A stretch of DNA of 62,192 nucleotides, filler included, from an uncultured virus (IMG/VR IMGVR_UViG_2049941000_000870) (taxonomy: Duplodnaviria; Heunggongvirae; Uroviricota; Caudoviricetes). It is 18 parts of one record of this genome, joined end to end, with 100 filler letters (N's around TTAATTAATTAA, not from the genome) between each part and the next. Parts side by side here need not be neighbours in the genome. Positions count along the whole stretch, not along the records: positions 21,822 to 26,894 come from IMGVR_UViG_2049941000_000870; 17 more parts are not named here. One strand, written 5' to 3'. A program made the position numbers and the translations under genes. Shown here piece by piece: positions 15,457 through 33,506 of the stretch. The notes below the pieces were generated by a model, which was not told the origin of the DNA, ran no database searches, and saw nothing but the letters and a program-made list of their open reading frames with translations. Position 1 is the stretch's first letter, and each line of letters begins with the position of its first letter.

Positions 15457-16406
15457 CATTGCCTTGCCCTCCAGAAAAAGTACTACGGAATGTATGGCAA
15501 GTATATAGGCGGAAACAGGATGAAGACACACTTCGCCAAGAGGTACAAGATGCAGAACCTCCATTCGCAAAGTGTGCAGGAGGTTATAGAACGTCTCGAC
15601 TCAGCATACCAGAGGTTCTTCGCCCGCAAGTCCAAGAGACCCCCGAAATTCAAGAGGTTCTCGGACATGTCGTCAGTCGTGTTCAAGCAAGGAGGCTTCA
15701 AACTGAATGGCAACAAGCTGACAATAAACAAGTTAAAAACAACGTTCAAGTTCTCACTGAGCCGTCCGCTCAAAGGGGACGTGAAGCGGCTGTCGGTGAA
15801 GCGCTCGCCGCTGGGCGACTACTACATCTGCGTCGTCACCGACGCCGAGGCCAAACGATACGGAAAGACACACGATGGTGCATCCGTTGGCATCGACTTC
15901 GGCCTGAAAACCTATCTCACACTCTCCGACGGGCAGGCGGTCGAGAACCCGCAGTTCCTTAAACGGAACCTCACATCATTGAGAAAGGCATCCAGAAAGC
16001 TGAGCAACGCAAAGCGTGGCTCGAACAACAGAATACGGAAACGCATGGACCTTGACAGATGCCATGAAAAGGTTGTGAATTCACGAACCGACTGGCAGTG
16101 GAAACTCGCCCATGCGATATGCCGCTCATATGACAACATATTCGTCGAGGACCTTGTCCTGACTGGAATGTCGAGACGCTGGGGCAGGGAGATGGGCGAC
16201 CTGGCGCACGGAAGGTTCGTGGAAATCCTCGGAATGGTTGCATCGAAATACGGATGCAACCTGCACAAGGTTGACAGGTTCTACCCGTCAAGCAAAACCT
16301 GCGAGTGCGGGTTTGTCAATGAGAACCTGTCGCTGAAGGACAGGGAGTGGGTCTGCCCGCATTGCGGAAGGACAAACGACAGGGACTTGAATGCTGCAAG
16401 AAATAT
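15457..16406 (+). CDS. tnpB: RNA-guided endonuclease TnpB (IS200/IS605), partial
   Basis: RuvC motifs GIDFG, VEDL, DRDLNAA; Zn finger CECG...CPHC. Confidence 0.92.
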
Positions 16407-22469: not shown

Positions 22470-23183
22470 CTATCTGATATTTGTTGTGTCTGATGTATTC
22501 CGTATGTGTATGCAACACGGTCTTCCGAGTTTGATTGTGTCGCCAACATGATACAGTGTGTTTGTCCTGAAATGCACTTCATTGTTTGGCCCAAAACGGT
22601 CCAGGCCCTTTATGGTAACCGTGTATGTATACGCATTTGTCTTTTTGTATTCAACACACATGACTATTCCGTTTTCGTCTTCGAGCGTATGTGTGCAGGA
22701 GCACATTGGGACAGCGGCCAGTGCAACAAAAGCAAGCAGGAAAAGCTTTCTCAACAGCTTTTTCCACCACGGAAGGTTGTCCTCGTACCTTCGTGTCATG
22801 ATATCGTTGTATGCCATGGCAATGTCTGCGGTTGTCACTTTGGCTTCTTCAAGGAGTTTCTCATCCAACGGAGGGCAGCTCTCAATTTTCTGGCAACCTT
22901 GGATTCGGCCACCTAGGATTCCGACCCCTTCGTCTTTCTTCTCCGTAGGCTCTTCTGGTTTTATCGGGTTGCCGTAGATATCAACTTCCTCAAGCATAAA
23001 CATGTTTTTACAATCTGGACAGTCACAGTACCTGAATTTCCTGATTTCATGCCCCTCCATAACCATCAAGATTGGCGTCGCAATCGTATACGTATCCGAC
23101 CTGTCAGCAATGAATTCGCACCCGCAGTTATGGCATTTTACTTCATATTTCTGTTTTACTTCGCCGTGTTTGATTATTTCCAT
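22470..23183 (-). CDS. Zn-ribbon and membrane-segment protein
   Basis: CHNC...CPDC and a hydrophobic stretch LFLLAFVALAAVPMCSC. Confidence 0.55.
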   Translation of the reverse strand: MEIIKHGEVKQKYEVKCHNCGCEFIADRSDTYTIATPILMVMEGHEIRKFRYCDCPDCKNMFMLEEVDIYGNPIKPEEPTEKKDEGVGILGGRIQGCQKIESCPPLDEKLLEEAKVTTADIAMAYNDIMTRRYEDNLPWWKKLLRKLFLLAFVALAAVPMCSCTHTLEDENGIVMCVEYKKTNAYTYTVTIKGLDRFGPNNEVHFRTNTLYHVGDTIKLGRPCCIHIRNTSDTTNIR

Positions 23184-24134
23184 TTGATATTAAAAATTGT
23201 TTGTTAAAATAGATTCATATGTTTTACCACCATATCCCGTTAAAGTGTTTCGCGAACAGAACCCTTCCGTTTTCAGCCCGTTGCACAAGGGAATCAAACT
23301 CCGCCATTTTCTCNNNNNNNNNNGTTTGTCGTTGTCTTTTTCTCTCATCATCTCCCTTGTCCATCCGCTGTCGATTCTCCAATATATGAAGTCACATAAT
23401 TTCTCTTTCAGACGGTTGAACCATTCTATCTTCGATACACGATACGGCGGTCTTAGATACTTGTTAGGGCCATATAATAGTTGGGTGAGGCTTCCGTCCC
23501 ACCAGCACAGGTACTCATCCCTGTATGTGCCGTATTTCTCCTTTCCGCAGACACGGATTCTGTNNNNNNNNNNNNNNNNNNNNNNNNNNNNNNNNNNNNN
23601 NNNNNNNNNNNNNNNNNNNNNNNNNNNNNNNNNNNNNNNNNNNNNNNNNNNNNNNNNNNNNNNNNNNNNNNNNNNNNNNNNNNNNNNNNNNNNNNNNNNN
23701 NNNNNNNNNNNNNNNNNNNNNNNNNNNNNNNNNNNNNNNNNNNNNNNNNNNNNNNNNNNNNNNNNNNNNNNNNNNNNNNNNNNNNNNNNNNNNNNNNNNN
23801 NNNNNNNNNNNNNNNNNNNNNNNNNNNNNNNNNNNNNNNNNNNNNNNNNNNNNNNNNNNNNNNNNNNNNNNNNNNNNNNNNNNNNNNNNNNNNNNNNNNN
23901 NNNNNNNNNNNNNNNNNNNNNNNNNNNNNNNNNNNNNNNNNNNNNNNNNNNNNNNNNNNNNNNNNNNNNNNNNNNNNNNNNNNNNNNNNNNNNNNNNNNN
24001 NNNNNNNNNNNNNNNNNNNNNNNNNNNNNNNNNNNNNNNNNNNNNNNNNNNNNNNNNNNNNNNNNNNNNNNNNNNNNNNNNNNNNNNNNNNNNNNNNNNN
24101 NNNNNNNNNNNNNNNNNNNNNNNNNNNNNNNNNN

Positions 24135-24369: not shown

Positions 24370-24464
24370 NNNNNNNNNNTGGGTAAGGGACCAGACCCGA
24401 CCTAATCGCCCCGACGCTCGGCTACATCCGTAAACACCCGACCAAGACAGTGGCCTGTTTTACC

Positions 24465-24880
24465 AGGTTTGAGGTGGAAGTGTGTCCATGCACGGCTTTC
24501 CCTTTTTAATAACGCCTCCCTTTCGGGGGACCGAGTGCCTTTGCACGGCAGTCCTATAATCCACGTCAGTGGTACCGCGCAAGCATTGCATTCTGTCGGA
24601 CAGCCTCTTTCAACAATTTATCGCTTCGGCTCCGTCTTGCATCGCCACACAGTTGCCTGTAGTGTGAGGCAGCTGACGCTGTGTGGACCGTACTCTCTTC
24701 CAAGTTATAGGCGGTAATGCTTCGAGCAGATTGCATAGCAAGGAATACTTATATCGGCTTTACGCCCTTCTGGCCTTGCCAGGTTGCTATCGGGAACGCT
24801 TCCTTGCCATGAGCGCTGCCGAGACACGTCCCGACGGCCCGATGCGGTTGCCCGTATATCATTTCAGGGCGGTTTTGTTG
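24465..24880 (-). ncRNA. Candidate large structured RNA
   Basis: Many nested helices and no credible ORF, inside the tRNA array; strand assumed from neighbours. Confidence 0.45.
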
Positions 24881-24883
24881 TCC

Positions 24884-24991
24884 GTGCCAGATAAAAACAG
24901 CCTTCAGCCCAAGAAAACTTTTAAAGAGGCAGCTGTTCTGTGGATTGCCTATGGGAATTGTGCTGTGCTTTTCTTGGTTCAGTCTGGCTAC
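24884..24991 (-). ncRNA. Conserved pseudoknot motif, copy 1
   Basis: Shared with the interior of 32920-33114, with a compensatory base-pair change. Confidence 0.7.
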
Positions 24992-25001
24992 GAACCTTTA
25001 G

Positions 25002-25084
25002 TAGCGGGTGAGGGACTCGAACCCCCGAGGCGTTGTGCAGTGGGTTATGAGCCCACCCCGATGACCATCTTCGGACAACCCGCA
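25002..25084 (-). tRNA. Initiator-type tRNA-Met(CAT) with long variable region
   Basis: 1:72 mismatch, GGG/CCC in anticodon stem, loop CT-CAT-AA. Confidence 0.85.
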
Positions 25085-25096
25085 ATGCTGTTCTTG

Positions 25097-25169
25097 AGCG
25101 GCAGACGGGACTTGGACCCGCGACTTCGGACTTGGAAGGACCGCGCTCTACCAACTGAGCTACTGCCGC
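25097..25169 (-). tRNA. tRNA-Gly(TCC)
   Basis: Loop CT-TCC-AA, T73; T-loop TCCAAGT. Confidence 0.88.
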
Positions 25170-25170
25170 G

Positions 25171-25318
25171 TAAGCACGGGGGTCAGGTCCCCCGCGGACC
25201 TCTTGCTGTCCAGCCCTGGGCTAGGCGGCAAGACCAATGTAAGAATTGTTCTCGTTTATTCCTACTCACTGCAGTCTACTCATCTCATACTCAACCGCCG
25301 TCAAAACCAAACGAGCCC
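25171..25318 (-). ncRNA. ssrA: tmRNA coding piece (split or permuted tmRNA), tag ENNSYIGLAA*
   Basis: 5' GGGCTCG-TTTGG-TTTT-GAC; AATAAAC before the resume codon; tag frame 25253-25221; terminal pseudoknot. Confidence 0.75.
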
Positions 25319-25646
25319 ATAAATGCAAGAGACGAATCTCATATTAAGTTTTCGTCTCTGTAACTGTCCCGACATCCTGGTCAGGCAGCTCAGTGGAGGC
25401 GGGGCTCGAACCCGCTCACCTGGCCGTGCGCTGGCACGCGCCGCACTCACGGTTTATCCGTCCCCACGAACTGGCTTTGGACTATGTACATCTTGCCTTC
25501 AAGAGGCCAGCCGCTCTCATACTCGCCGACAGACGTTTGCAACCGAACTGTCAGCTTTCCTGTTGGGACTTCCCAGATGCCACCCGAATCGTGACACCAT
25601 TGTCGTTTCTTTCAAAAACAAGGGGCGTGATTTGAANNNNNNNNNN

Positions 25647-26335
25647 GCTGATTCCTGCCACACTATGTTACCATAGCCAAACAAGTGGAACCGACTTGTG
25701 AAATGCCCCTCAATTCATGAGACACCTCCTTGGGAGTCGAACCCAAGAGCTAAATGTTTGTTGTGGTCTGGACTGTCTCTTTGCCATATTGAAATTCTTG
25801 CAAGGCAAAACTTACTTATATAACCCTTTCTTTATTTTTCCGTTCTTGTCCTACGGCTTAAGCTATTCACCATAGGGGAGCGCAGTACTATTTCAACTGA
25901 AATACTTAGATTAATTTCATAAGTTTTAAATTTCAACTTAGACACCACCCGTTCAGTCTCTACACGATTATGAGTGTTATCCATACCAAACTTCTCTTTC
26001 AAAGATGTAGAGGAAGTAACTACTCAATTTCGCTCGGCATAGTCCTACACATTATTGGTTAGTGTTTCACTTGATGTGCCAGGGTGATATTTACCCACCT
26101 CCCATGGTTGGCGAAGGCGTCTGTGTGAATACAGATTAGCCCGCTTTCTAAACACACCAACTAAGGATTTCCACCGAATTTAGGCGGAGGATTGGGAACA
26201 GCACGGGAAATTAAGATACTCCGCGATTTGTATCACCCTGTTGCTTTTATTACCAATCCACCACTATGGGGTTTCCCGCCATAGCGCACAATTTTACTAT
26301 GAGTCAGCCGCTCTAACCATCTGAGCTAAGGGACC
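25647..26335 (-). tRNA. tRNA-Ile(CAT, lysidine-type) interrupted by a group I intron; 3' end lost in gap
   Basis: 5' exon 26335-26299 GGTCCCT...GCTGA-CT-CAT; 3' exon AA-TCAGC 25653-25647. Confidence 0.85.
25654..26298 (-). ncRNA. Group I intron (IC3-like), 645 nt, position 36/37
   Basis: P1 CAU/GUG with U.G; P 26161-26184, Q 26026-26045, R 25948-25969, S 25770-25782; terminal G. Confidence 0.9.
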
Positions 26336-26475
26336 TGACCAGGGTTTATATTACCGACAGCCCCTGCACTGCCCGCCGACACATACGGTTCGGTGTTGGG
26401 TGGTGGCAACCTCTCGGCTGCACCCAAGAATGGTACGTTCCAGGCTAATCGCTAGCATTTCACCTGGCTTTGTTT

Positions 26476-26530
26476 TGGCGGAGGGTGTAGGATTCGAACC
26501 TACGGGGGCTGTGACACCCCAACGGTTTTC
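26476..26530 (-). tRNA. 3' exon of tRNA-Ser (probably TGA)
   Basis: GAAA-ACCGT, long variable arm, T-arm, G73-CCA. Confidence 0.8.
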
Positions 26531-26691
26531 CTTGCCACACTATGTTACCATAGCCAAACAAAAGCAGAGGGATTTAACTTATACTGCTCAACTTCCTTTT
26601 AATTTAATTTTCTTTGTTTGTTGTGGTCTGGACTGTCTCTTTACCATATTGAAATTCTTGCAAGATATAGTTTTCACCGAACGGATTCCTT
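26531..26691 (-). ncRNA. Group I intron 3' part (P8', S, P9, omegaG)
   Basis: Near-identical S and P9 blocks to intron 25654-26298. Confidence 0.85.
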
Positions 26692-28396: not shown

Positions 28397-29209
28397 TCAA
28401 AACCTAAGTCCATGCTTTGACATCTTATCCTTCTGGACCTTTGACACGACTCTCGCTATTTTCTTGGCAAACGCCCTGATTTTCTTCCCGACCATGTTAC
28501 TTGTATATCCGAACTTGCGTATGGCTTCATTGAATTCACATGTGTCTCCGATTTCACTGTACACGGACACCATTTCGTCATAAAGCCTTGCACATTCGGT
28601 GTCTTTCATGACATCAAGCCTGAAAGGGCCTGGAATTGACATCAGATATGCATACATACCGTTCACAAAACCGTCCTGTTCGCTCCTGACACACCCGTAC
28701 AGCAGTCTTCCGACTTTCTGTTCGAACCTGTCACCGAAACGCATCATGGTCACAATTTCCGCATATGCCGACGAATCGTTGAACCTTTCTCCAGACATCA
28801 CCTGCTGGTATATATGCTCCAACTCGTGCTGTATCCCGTCCCTTGTCTGGCTGACCTGAAGCCTGCCTTTGACGGACACCGCGTTGATGAACATGAAGGC
28901 CGACCCGCTGTCGGTCATCACGCTTGACGCATCCTGGCTGGTTCCGAATGTTTCGGCAATGTCCGCATCTTCCGCGTCATAGTCCGTGCATGAATACGAC
29001 ACATACACATTGGTATCCATGAACCTGAAAGTGAACGCGCCTTCCTGTACGGACCACCAGTTGCCCTTCCTTTTGTTTTGAGTATTTGAAGAAATGTCGT
29101 TCACAAGCATGTTATAGACCTCTTCGGCTTTGTCGGCAATATCCCTGGATATGCCGAGCTCTTCCGTTATTAGTTTTCTCAAGGCTGATTCGTTAAGCTC
29201 AAACTTCAT
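28397..29209 (-). CDS. Hypothetical protein with HExxH motif
   Basis: MKFELNE...IQHELEH...SEQDG. Confidence 0.6.
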   Translation of the reverse strand: MKFELNESALRKLITEELGISRDIADKAEEVYNMLVNDISSNTQNKRKGNWWSVQEGAFTFRFMDTNVYVSYSCTDYDAEDADIAETFGTSQDASSVMTDSGSAFMFINAVSVKGRLQVSQTRDGIQHELEHIYQQVMSGERFNDSSAYAEIVTMMRFGDRFEQKVGRLLYGCVRSEQDGFVNGMYAYLMSIPGPFRLDVMKDTECARLYDEMVSVYSEIGDTCEFNEAIRKFGYTSNMVGKKIRAFAKKIARVVSKVQKDKMSKHGLRF

Positions 29210-29338
29210 GTTGTCGAAAAACAGTTTGTTATTTTNNNNNNNNNNGATATCAAACATTATGTGCCATATGACGCATATCCGTGCTTTGGTTCGTTTGTAG
29301 CCTCCCAGGGACTCGAACCTGTTACCAACCCTTTCACG

Positions 29339-30923: not shown

Positions 30924-31763
30924 GTGTTTTTGATTATTTCAGTTCCTGTTTCGCCAGGAGTCTCTTCAGCAGCTCGTTCTGCTCCCTTAGGAGCCTGATT
31001 TCCTCGCTGTCGCCAGGCTTCTGTTCAGGCAGCGGTTTGTGTACAATCTCCACCCTTCCGCCGTCGACCACGCGCATCTGGTCGCTCCTGTCCATAATCT
31101 CCGCCGCGTGCGCCGCGCGCCCGCCAGCCATGAAGGTCCGTGTAAAATTTCACATCNNNNNNNNNNACCTATACCCAAATGTTATTGTTTAGATTGTTTC
31201 AACATAATTGTCCAACGCTTCTATCACACCGTTCGCGACAAGCGGTATCAGGGTGTTGAACGAGTCTATGCAATCGCTTATGACCTGCAGAGANNNNNNN
31301 NNNCCGCCTTCCATCTCTGGAATATGACTTCGGACTCGCGCCTGATGTGCTCGTTCATTTCGTCATTGTTGTCCATAATCTTTGTGTTTTAATGTCTTTT
31401 TGTTTGGGTAGTCGGACTCGGACCGACAGGACTGTCGGAACGCGGGACCATTGCGGGCTGCACCCCGCTGGACCGCTGTAACCGACAGCCCCCNNNNNNN
31501 NNNTCCAAAGGCGTGTTCGGACCCTTGATGTTGTACCTTGCAACCGTGAGGAGATAACCCTTCAGTTCGTCCTTCCAGTGCTCTTTCAACCCGTTCGGAC
31601 CGCCGCATATCGTGCAGTGCCGCACAAGGCACCAGTTCTCGATGATTTGCTGGGACAGGTTGTNNNNNNNNNNNNNNNNNNNNNNNNNNNNNNNNNNNNN
31701 NNNNNNNTTAATTAATTAANNNNNNNNNNNNNNNNNNNNNNNNNNNNNNNNNNNNNNNNNNNN

Positions 31764-32919: not shown

Positions 32920-33114
32920 GTGAAGAACCGAGGATTCGAACCTCGGAGTGTCGTGTGTTCCGCAACAACAGCCTTCAGCACAAGAAAACTTTTAAAGAGG
33001 CAGCTGTTCTGTTTTTCATATGAACCGACGGACCAATTTCAGCTTAAAATCCGTTGACTATGCTTTTCTTGTTTCAGTCGGAACAATGCGACACACCATA
33101 CTTTCTTTTCTTCA
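32920..33114 (-). ncRNA. tRNA-like RNA (acceptor stem plus T-arm) enclosing the pseudoknot motif, copy 2
   Basis: TGAAGAA/TTCTTCA, CCGAGG-TTCGAAT-CCTCGG, GTGTCG/CGACAC, TGTTCCG/CGGAACA. Confidence 0.7.
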
Positions 33115-33196: not shown

Positions 33197-33506
33197 GAAA
33201 GCGACCGACCGCACGACAAAGCCACACTATGTTACCATAGCCAACTTATCCTCTGTAACTGCTATTTAGTTTGTATTACTCGACCCTTTCTTTTCTTTCA
33301 TACAACATCAAGTTACATATTTCCGAGTAAATTGTTGTGGTCTGGACTGTCTCTTTGCCATATTGGAACTCTTGCAAGATGGTTTNNNNNNNNNNTTCAT
33401 ACCTACAACTTCCTACACCCGAGTAGTCCTCTGAATCTTGATGGTAATATATTCTCAAACCAATTCCGACTTAGGCATCTCCCGTTCAGTCTCTACACGA
33501 TTATAA
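33197..33506 (-). ncRNA. Group I intron-like 3' half (R, P8, S, P9) with non-tRNA 3' flank
   Basis: R 33481-33503, S 33344-33356, P9 33221-33244; candidate omegaG at 33217. Confidence 0.8.

Follow-up and report, generated by a model that had tools for sequence, protein, structure and literature searches.

A Permuted Phage tmRNA Coding Piece That Has Probably Lost Its Acceptor Piece by Deletion

The window, which is the whole stretch of 62,192 nucleotides of DNA analysed here, carries what is probably the coding piece of a permuted two-piece phage tmRNA whose acceptor piece was deleted, and which has probably become a pseudogene recently. The probability assigned to this reading is roughly 0.6. 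Judged by sequence comparison, members of the gene family are circularly permuted and have their acceptor piece ahead of the coding piece. The acceptor end therefore belongs upstream, and the apparent half of a tmRNA requires no new class of RNA. The kind is already known, and the locus is an additional, defective member of it.

Two-piece tmRNAs are made from a single precursor, which is cut by RNase P, receives CCA, is charged by AlaRS and is delivered by SmpB for the tagging of proteins for proteolysis. The sequence-only reading of the same DNA had proposed a minimal form of such an RNA, with its acceptor piece located upstream or supplied in trans. The two-piece form with an upstream acceptor stands for the gene family, in which three loci from viral contigs (L208, L258 and L138) pass the permuted tmRNA model RF04321, but no fitting acceptor is present at this locus. 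A working RNA at this locus is not supported, as the visible window has no CGAG(T/C)CC-A beside a T-arm and the T-arm found upstream misfits.

Genomic Setting of the Locus

The DNA comes from a bovine-gut sample. The window is a gappy scaffold with 103 runs of N, which make up 9,394 of its 62,192 bases (about 15%). The tmRNA locus is contained in a gap-free stretch (24380-25636), where every string quoted in the sequence-only reading was found in place on the minus strand. An independent contig of the source sample (X3 record 11) corroborates the sequence, being equal to 25120-25636 with 0 differences. The adjoining gap of 10 N (25637-25646) conceals at least 173 bases, as contigs of the source sample and of run X5 extend about 173 nt past 25636.

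The open reading frames of the window include DnaK, DnaJ, a sigma-70-type factor, thymidylate synthase, an HNH endonuclease, a transposase and BACON-domain proteins, with many further frames lacking a family match. No phage structural proteins were identified among the window ORFs, and a Pfam scan of 54 of them found no SmpB. The context and the viral contigs that hold homologs point to a phage replicon, and a large phage of a Bacteroidota host can reasonably be supposed. The transposase ORF (15457-16404, plus strand; phrog_506, E 8e-84) lies in a window that is otherwise read on the minus strand. At least ten tRNA genes are present, one of which directly follows the locus:

25096 to 25169, minus strand: tRNA-Gly(UCC), 64.7 bits, directly downstream of the coding piece and followed by tRNA-Met

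Neither the tRNA-Gly nor the tRNA-Met genes of the window encode CCA. The adjacency of the coding piece and tRNA-Gly is kept in a contig of another bovine-gut run (X6 record 22), and in the viral loci L208 and L251 a tRNA likewise stands right after the coding piece. The T-loop of this tRNA-Gly reads TCCAAGT, with C in place of the near-universal U55.

Other observations concern the RNA genes nearby. A tRNA-Met(CAT) with a 543-nt intervening sequence in the anticodon loop is called at 25723-26334 (minus strand; ARAGORN -i, -ps90), and the intervening sequence gave no match to the Rfam group I intron model at the thresholds used. A second GGTCCGAGTCC motif is located at 31414-31424 (minus). T-loop motifs also occur outside the called tRNAs, at 26475-26530, 29309-29319 and 32932-32942 (all minus), with the motif in the 26490 region followed by ACCCTCC-G-CCA; they could be relics, or halves of tRNA genes that are split or contain introns. 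Two repeat modules are each present in three copies, one of 50 nt (90-100% alike; 25755-25804, 26615-26664 and 33329-33378) and one of 29 nt with a CTATG-GTAA-CATAG hairpin (25656-25684, 26533-26561 and 33220-33248). They appear in the same order each time, upstream of RNA genes. Further repeats (24893-24941 with 32964-33012, and 24963-24984 with 33058-33079) lie downstream, flanking both tRNA-Gly genes. The modules look like duplicated ends of transcription units.

Structure of the Coding Piece and Its Spacer

The coding piece and the spacer preceding it are composed of the following elements:

25170 to 25318, minus strand: mRNA-like coding piece of the permuted tmRNA; G1 is at 25318, and the last base adjoins tRNA-Gly
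25295 to 25318, minus strand: 5′ half of the tRNA-like domain, with acceptor 5′ strand GGGCTCG, D-loop analogue TTTGGTTTTGAC and GGCGG
25221 to 25253, minus strand: tag frame ENNSYIGLAA-stop (GAG AAC AAT TCT TAC ATT GGT CTT GCC GCC TAG)
25201 to 25233, minus strand: predicted P5-like hairpin TCTTGC/GCAAGA (MFE fold), enclosing the tag end and the stop codon
25176 to 25200, minus strand: 3′ hairpin GCGGGGG/CCCCCGT with loop ACCTGA, preceded by an invariant GGTCC
25328 to 25390, minus strand: structured spacer with hairpins H1 (25390-25362) and H2 (25359-25328, loop AACTTAATATGAGA)

The 5′ tRNA-like half reads GGGCTCG TTTGG TTTT GAC GGCGG (25318-25295), and its D-loop analogue is invariant across the window, L208 and L258. 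The resume context GGAATAAAC stands directly 5′ of the tag codon GAG, with AATAAAC preceding the frame. The resume codon starts at nucleotide 66 of the coding piece, in agreement with the earlier estimate of about 65 nt from the 5′ end. ARAGORN reads the tag ENNSYIGLAA-stop once its thresholds are lowered. The low-threshold ARAGORN calls were rejected as artefacts, all of them being composites that borrow the T-arm of tRNA-Met or other stretches. At default settings ARAGORN calls no tmRNA at the locus, and neither does Rfam at gathering score.

The segment formed by the spacer and the coding piece (25392-25171) folds with a z-score of -3.84, while the sequence upstream of it (25636-25390) folds no better than its shuffles (z -0.73). 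In the alignment of the window with L208 and L258, 91.4% of the cells are paired and 7 pairs are changed on both sides. Such counts rest on three sequences; none of 500 shuffles reaches them and slid registers come nowhere near either. Of the two spacer hairpins, H1 has 93.9% of its cells paired and 1 compensatory pair; H2 has 100% of its cells paired, 2 compensatory pairs and a loop that hardly varies. The P5-like hairpin is suggested by the sequence and the MFE fold, the alignment being poor in that region. A P2-like helix in cis (GGCG/CTGC) was considered and dropped, with only 50% of the alignment cells paired.

The 3′ end of the coding piece had earlier been read as a pseudoknot of two helices. 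One of them, GCGGGGG/CCCCCGT, is backed by the alignment: all cells of its 7 pairs are paired, and 4 of the 7 are changed on both sides among the three sequences. The other, AGGTCC/GGACCT (within 25201-25176), never varies and overlaps the first, so that a pseudoknot is possible only. A U-run follows the same 3′ hairpin in L258 and L138, resembling a terminator, and the hairpin may be a terminator as much as half a pseudoknot. The tag is confirmed to lack a T-arm and an acceptor 3′ strand downstream of it, tRNA-Gly beginning 6 nt past the 3′ hairpin. In the one RNA run inspected (X17), no contig falls on 25171-25318, which is uninformative either way.

A 10-mer, GAGTATGAGA, occurs twice on the minus strand (25283-25292 and 25515-25524), 232 nt apart and each time after G(A/T)CGGCG. 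The coding piece contains one copy, and the second precedes the tRNA-like element described below; blastn found no wider similarity around them. A self-blast of the window gave no significant second copy of 25636-25171.

Relatives with an Intact Acceptor Piece

The closest homologs of the locus are L208 and L258, which are located in IMG/VR viral contigs of 110 and 115 kb. The window matches both of them over 25400-25171 (blastn, E 1.26e-20), a value at which the resemblance of the spacer and coding piece is not chance. The alignment spans the whole unit from CTCCAC on, from the spacer hairpins through the 3′ hairpin. It comprises the two spacer hairpins, the 5′ tRNA-like half, a purine-rich stretch, AATAAA, the tag frame, GGTCC and the 7-bp hairpin. 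The loop of H2 reads AACTTAA(T/C)ATGAGA throughout, and is near-invariant. The frame ending in LAA-stop is kept as well, as HNTTFRLAA-stop in L208 and HKTTVRLAA-stop in L258. Conservation of the tag frame, whose absence in homologs the sequence-only reading had named as a refuting result, is borne out: the RLAA-stop end is common to the two relatives and their last three tag codons differ synonymously.

Both relatives carry the part that the window lacks. Their acceptor piece reads ..GGATGTTTGGAC GAGGG GTTCGATT CCCTC TACCTCC A C, and its acceptor strand forms 7 of 7 pairs with GGGGGTA. A third relative, L138, was found in a 56-kb viral contig through a pattern requiring a short distance from GAC to AATAAA. 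In this locus GGAC GAGGG TTCGATC CCCTC CACCTCC A C is followed after 92 nt by GGGGGTG ACG TGGTTTTGAC, and further downstream by the tag ASLQTERMAA-stop and a terminator. In all three loci, GGAC, the T-arm, the 7-nt acceptor strand and A-C stand 78-92 nt before the coding piece. Their RF04321 scores are 62.1 (L208), 57.5 (L258) and 58.8 bits (L138), at a cut-off of 47; the clade models RF01849-51 remain below cut-off on L208 and L258. ARAGORN -m calls no tmRNA in L138 or L258, and in L208 it calls a permuted tmRNA, but with the tag in another frame (VRAEPNPPFMLL, then stop).

Searches for closer kin gave little. The window proteins of 997 aa and 635 aa have no match in the records of L208, L258, L138 and L251, which are fragment records and silent on kinship. 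Two neighbouring proteins (22473-23189 and 28400-29233) have no relatives in IMG/VR, where exact and degenerate patterns of the window also gave 0 matches. A 16-mer occurs there in at least 113 loci, none of them tmRNA-like by eye among the matches listed. Against GenBank phages, blastn matches the tRNA-Gly part only (63 records).

The Permuted Family in Viral Contigs

A pattern consisting of CTCCAC, a distance of 64-94 nt, GGG, 6-7 nt and TGGTTTTGAC retrieved 110 viral loci from IMG/VR. In 96 of these loci the strand before A-C forms 7 of 7 pairs with the 5′-terminal 7 nt of the coding piece, and five more (L198, L206, L235, L286 and L271) are fully complementary after correction of the register by eye. 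Permuted genes thus total about 101 of the 110, the remaining 9 looking like chance matches. Twelve types of fully complementary strands are found, such as ATGCTCC/GGGGCAT, CAGCTCC/GGGGCTG and CACGTCC/GGGCGTG. As 57 loci belong to one clade, these are not 101 independent cases. The RF04321 model passes 19 of 20 family loci tested, some of which also match cyanobacterial or betaproteobacterial clade models. An in-frame (A/V)A-stop is present, by a simple rule, in 52 of 65 distinct coding pieces of the family. A scan of genomes gave 54 loci, of which one (L183) is a one-piece tmRNA and the others are chance.

The acceptor stem of four loci (L197, L249, L270 and L288) is complementary, but AT-rich sequence with a final G takes the place of the 5′ half of their T-arm. 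Such sequence may belong to a group I intron located in the T-loop region of these permuted genes; introns of this type in tmRNA genes are reported in PMC11915505.

The Upstream tRNA-Like Element Is Probably Not a Fitting Acceptor Piece

At the place where the relatives carry their acceptor piece, the window has another element:

25392 to 25468, minus strand: self-contained tRNA-like element, CGTGGGG .. T-arm GCGGG TTCGAGC CCCGC (25415-25399) .. CTCCACT

Upstream of its spacer the window reads GGTGA GCGGG TTCGAGC CCCGC CTCC A C. The 3′ strand CTCCAC(T) that follows the T-arm complements (C)GTGGGG about 70 nt upstream, giving the geometry of a 5-bp T-stem and a 7-position acceptor, and in the MFE fold the element (25468-25392) is closed by its own 6-bp helix, GTGGGG/CTCCAC. 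It is not recognised as a tRNA, with ARAGORN calling it only at -ps60, and its best Rfam match is Tymo_tRNA-like at 23.3 bits, below cut-off. No homolog of the element was found in any fetched locus. It is probably not the fitting acceptor piece. The T-arm with CTCC-A-C does lie 74 nt before G1, within the 64-94 nt range of the family, but it closes on its own 5′ strand and is without GGAC. Compared with L208, the window is without the 14 nt bearing P2a and GGAC, and without the 3 nt between the T-stem and CTCC.

The pairing that remains is short. Between GGGCTCG and CTCC the contiguous pairs are G1-C, G2-C and G3-U, followed by mismatches at C4 and U5; CGCCTCC and GGGCTCG can pair at 5 of 7 positions, only if the T-stem opens. 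In family locus L271 (GGGCGTG/CACGTCC), whose coding piece starts with GGGC, the partner strand carries the matching G, which makes CGAGTCC the expected partner in the window. No partner for P2a was found in 25636-25393, where the best duplex (-24.4 kcal/mol) is weaker than the shuffle mean (-28.0) and 271 of 300 shuffles are as good or better. GGAC, present in 86 of 110 family loci, is absent before the upstream T-arm.

It is conceivable, at rather long odds, that the T-arm at 25415-25393 serves as a shortened acceptor in a working two-piece tmRNA, with a helix of 3-4 bp stacked on the T-stem, G3-U70 and A73. AlaRS charges very short helices that carry G3-U70. The distance of CTCC-A-C from G1 fits this proposal, as do the presence of G1-C, G2-C, G3-U and A73, the undecayed coding piece, and the same 9-nt geometry in a further locus (L127, below) where GGGGGTG and CACCTCC can pair 7 of 7. 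Against it stand the mismatch of C4 with C69, the need to open the T-stem for positions 5-7, the engagement of the 3′ strand in the helix with GTGGGG, and the lack of both GGAC and P2a. The 7 acceptor pairs are moreover kept in all 101 real family loci, and RF04321 leaves the two parts of the window unjoined.

RF04321 is the only tmRNA-type match at E up to 10, scoring 10.9 bits (E 7.9; cut-off 47 bits, nothing at gathering score) on the tag region only; it does not join the upstream T-arm and the coding piece. The one-piece model RF00023 has no match. The partner strand that the sequence-only reading proposed to search for is missing from the visible window, where CGAGYCCA has 3 matches against 3.35 expected and none is acceptor-like: one arises from the 5′ end of the coding piece read as its complement, and no T-arm adjoins the other two.

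An acceptor piece acting in trans, from a masked or unassembled part of the genome or from a co-infecting relative, is about as doubtful as the shortened acceptor. The 9,394 masked bases, among them the gap at 25637-25646 with its at least 173 concealed bases, leave room for such a piece, and the coding piece is intact. In 101 of 101 real family loci, on the other side, the acceptor piece stands directly before the spacer; the CGAGYCCA matches in the visible window are no more frequent than expected, with none beside a T-arm, and there is no second RF04321 match in the window.

The Probable Deletion Junction in Other Bovine-Gut Runs

The point at which the tRNA-like element meets the spacer was compared in contigs of four runs:

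25391 to 25397, minus strand: junction TCCACTG, covering part of CTCC-A-C, the end motif of the acceptor piece in the family

In the source sample, the contig is of the short type and shows 0 differences from the window. Two independent bovine-gut runs of other studies contain relatives (X5 record 18, 754 nt, and X6 record 22, 869 nt), with 6-21 differences per piece. These contigs follow the window over 25636-25391, continue with 149-150 unaligned bases and resume at 25397, which amounts to about 156 extra bases with TCCACTG repeated. The extra bases are known from their length and flanking repeats only. The motif TCCACTG fits both the expected end of an acceptor piece (CGAG-TCC-A-CTG) and the end of the tRNA-like element (CTCCACT-G). 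An antisense ORF (25323-25634), compared with a protein collection with the relatives' extra bases in view, gave no match.

A local deletion from an ordinary one-piece gene had been named in the sequence-only reading as a result that would count against it. The part about a deletion agrees with the extra bases of the relatives at the junction, but the ordinary gene is permuted rather than one-piece. The extra bases could instead stem from an insertion that duplicated a 7-nt target, without being an acceptor piece, and the event might then have run in the other direction.

One-Piece tmRNAs and the L127 Chimera

A degenerate pattern of the 5′ tRNA-like half retrieved 22 loci from metagenome contigs, among which neither the phage of the window nor a close relative was found. 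Five of them (L114, L120, L124, L125 and L131) are starts of one-piece tmRNAs. Two, L114 and L124, are complete, with the tags GEESYALAA and GENTYALAA, respectively, and score 152 bits with RF00023. The 17-mer TTTGGTTTTGACGGCGG of the coding piece is identical in these two tmRNAs and in L127.

The resemblance raises the possibility that the phage acquired a 3′-truncated fragment of a one-piece tmRNA from its host. The first 24 nt of the coding piece are like those of L114 and L124, and its tag is like GEESYALAA and GENTYALAA. The homology to the permuted L208 and L258 extends over the entire unit and takes in the upstream spacer, however, and the resume codon is at nucleotide 66 as in these loci, versus 96-97 in L124 and L114. 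The homology of the spacer and coding piece indicates that the locus is not a truncated one-piece gene, and acquisition of a host fragment is the least probable of the explanations weighed, to be given hardly any credit.

Two further loci of this set, L127 and L129, are 99.9% identical and have a mini coding piece preceded by a tRNA-like gene. In L127 (2410-2488, minus strand) this gene resembles tRNA-Ala(UGC), scoring 46.6 bits with the Rfam tRNA model, and a 3-nt deletion shortens its acceptor 3′ strand. This strand pairs 7 of 7 with the tmRNA coding piece, compared with 4 of 7 with its own 5′ strand. The CACCTCC A C end complements GGGGGTG 7 of 7, and RF04321 gives 17.4 bits, below cut-off. 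A LuxS-like ORF, named by eye, follows the coding piece of L127. The locus looks like a chimera formed at a shared CCACCT, and like an independent event of the same type as that in the window. L127 and L129 resemble the window in the T-arm followed by only CTCC-A-C (3 nt short), the hairpin spacer, the mini coding piece, the 17-mer and AATAAA. They differ in that the 7-nt CACCTCC of L127 fully complements GGGGGTG, whereas the window reaches 5 of 7 by opening the T-stem.

Proposed Mechanism and Fate of the Short Allele

By analogy with known two-piece tmRNAs, intact relatives would produce a single transcript consisting of the acceptor piece, a structured spacer of 64-94 nt and the coding piece. 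The acceptor piece has the order P2a, GGAC, T-arm, 7-nt acceptor 3′ strand and A-C. The precursor would be cut at G1 by RNase P, the acceptor end trimmed and CCA added, and the two pieces would then pair through the acceptor stem and P2a. Such an RNA could be charged by AlaRS through G3-U70 and delivered to stalled ribosomes by the SmpB of the host, with a tag ending in LAA added for proteolysis. The 3′ end of the coding piece would be defined by the 5′ processing of tRNA-Gly. The processing of two-piece tmRNAs is summarised in the sections of PMC9004378 and PMC11915505 on which this account draws.

In the window allele, about 156 nt lying between two TCCACTG repeats would have been deleted, so that the acceptor piece was lost and the tRNA-like element came to adjoin the spacer. 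With no fitting acceptor piece the tmRNA could not be charged in cis, and unless it is served by a partner in trans the gene has probably become a pseudogene recently. The coding piece itself is undecayed, with the tag frame, G1-G3, the D-loop analogue and the hairpins all intact, which fits either a very recent loss or continued use.

Continued use in some form is a minor prospect, though somewhat better than that of any single route to it. The orphan coding piece would then act through a 9-bp mini-helix with G3-U70, with an acceptor in trans, or as a decoy of SmpB. The window and L127 share an odd geometry of 9 nt from the T-loop to A73, which might be functional in both rather than having arisen twice by accident, and the L127 chimera might likewise use a mini-helix. 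The decoy would be a tmRNA mimic without an acceptor, kept for itself, that captures host SmpB by means of its D-loop analogue and so weakens host trans-translation. Partial phage tmRNAs are able to interfere and the 5′ tRNA-like half is perfectly preserved here, but a tag frame with its LAA end would be needless in a decoy and the short allele is seen in the source sample only; this version is very improbable. The deletion of the acceptor piece from a permuted gene is kept as the preferred reading.

The locus and L127 point to natural decay or remodelling of permuted tmRNA genes through recombination between tRNA-like repeats in tRNA arrays. If the orphan coding piece proved active, it would test the minimum tRNA-like domain for trans-translation. 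The searches also matter for annotation: a group of phage permuted tmRNAs that RF04321 detects is overlooked or wrongly read by ARAGORN, and one pattern recovered about 101 permuted genes in IMG/VR.

Comparison with Known Systems

Permuted tmRNAs of the RF04321 type (tmRNA_permuted) are described, in the extracts of PMC11915505 and PMC9004378 used here, from Alphaproteobacteria, Betaproteobacteria, Cyanobacteria and phages. The former includes the RF04321 model and 79 bacteriophage sequences, and the latter counts, in the excerpt concerned, 53 two-piece forms among 133 unique phage tmRNAs found by ARAGORN, 50 of them marine or aquatic. The occurrence of tmRNAs in huge phages is noted in a passage of PMC7162821.

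The intact relatives L208, L258 and L138 agree with RF04321 in the order of acceptor, spacer and coding piece, the 7-bp stem, G3-U70, A73, the GAC D-loop analogue, P2a and the (L/V/M)AA end of the tag. The window shares with the model the homologous spacer and coding piece, G1-G3, the GAC-ending D-loop analogue and the conserved Ala-Ala tag end. It differs in the missing fitting acceptor and P2a, the resume codon at nucleotide 66, the lack of an evident PK1, the single 3′ hairpin and the structured, conserved spacer. The window, L208 and L258 may form a phage lineage not described before, in which permuted tmRNAs with few pseudoknots and a conserved structured spacer arose from the one-piece type of L114 and L124.

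The ssrA gene of phage Melnitz is similar to the locus in being a phage-borne permuted gene located among tRNA genes. Forms of the Melnitz type are mostly marine or aquatic, whereas the window comes from the bovine gut and its tag resembles those of L114 and L124. The known phage two-piece set was found by ARAGORN, in contrast to L138, L258 and L208, which this program misses or misreads. The one-piece tmRNAs of the RF00023 type (L114 and L124) are like the window in the identical 17-mer and in the tag, ENNSYIGLAA being close to GENTYALAA and GEESYALAA. They are unlike it in possessing PK1-PK4 and, after the tag, the T-arm and acceptor strand that are absent in the window.
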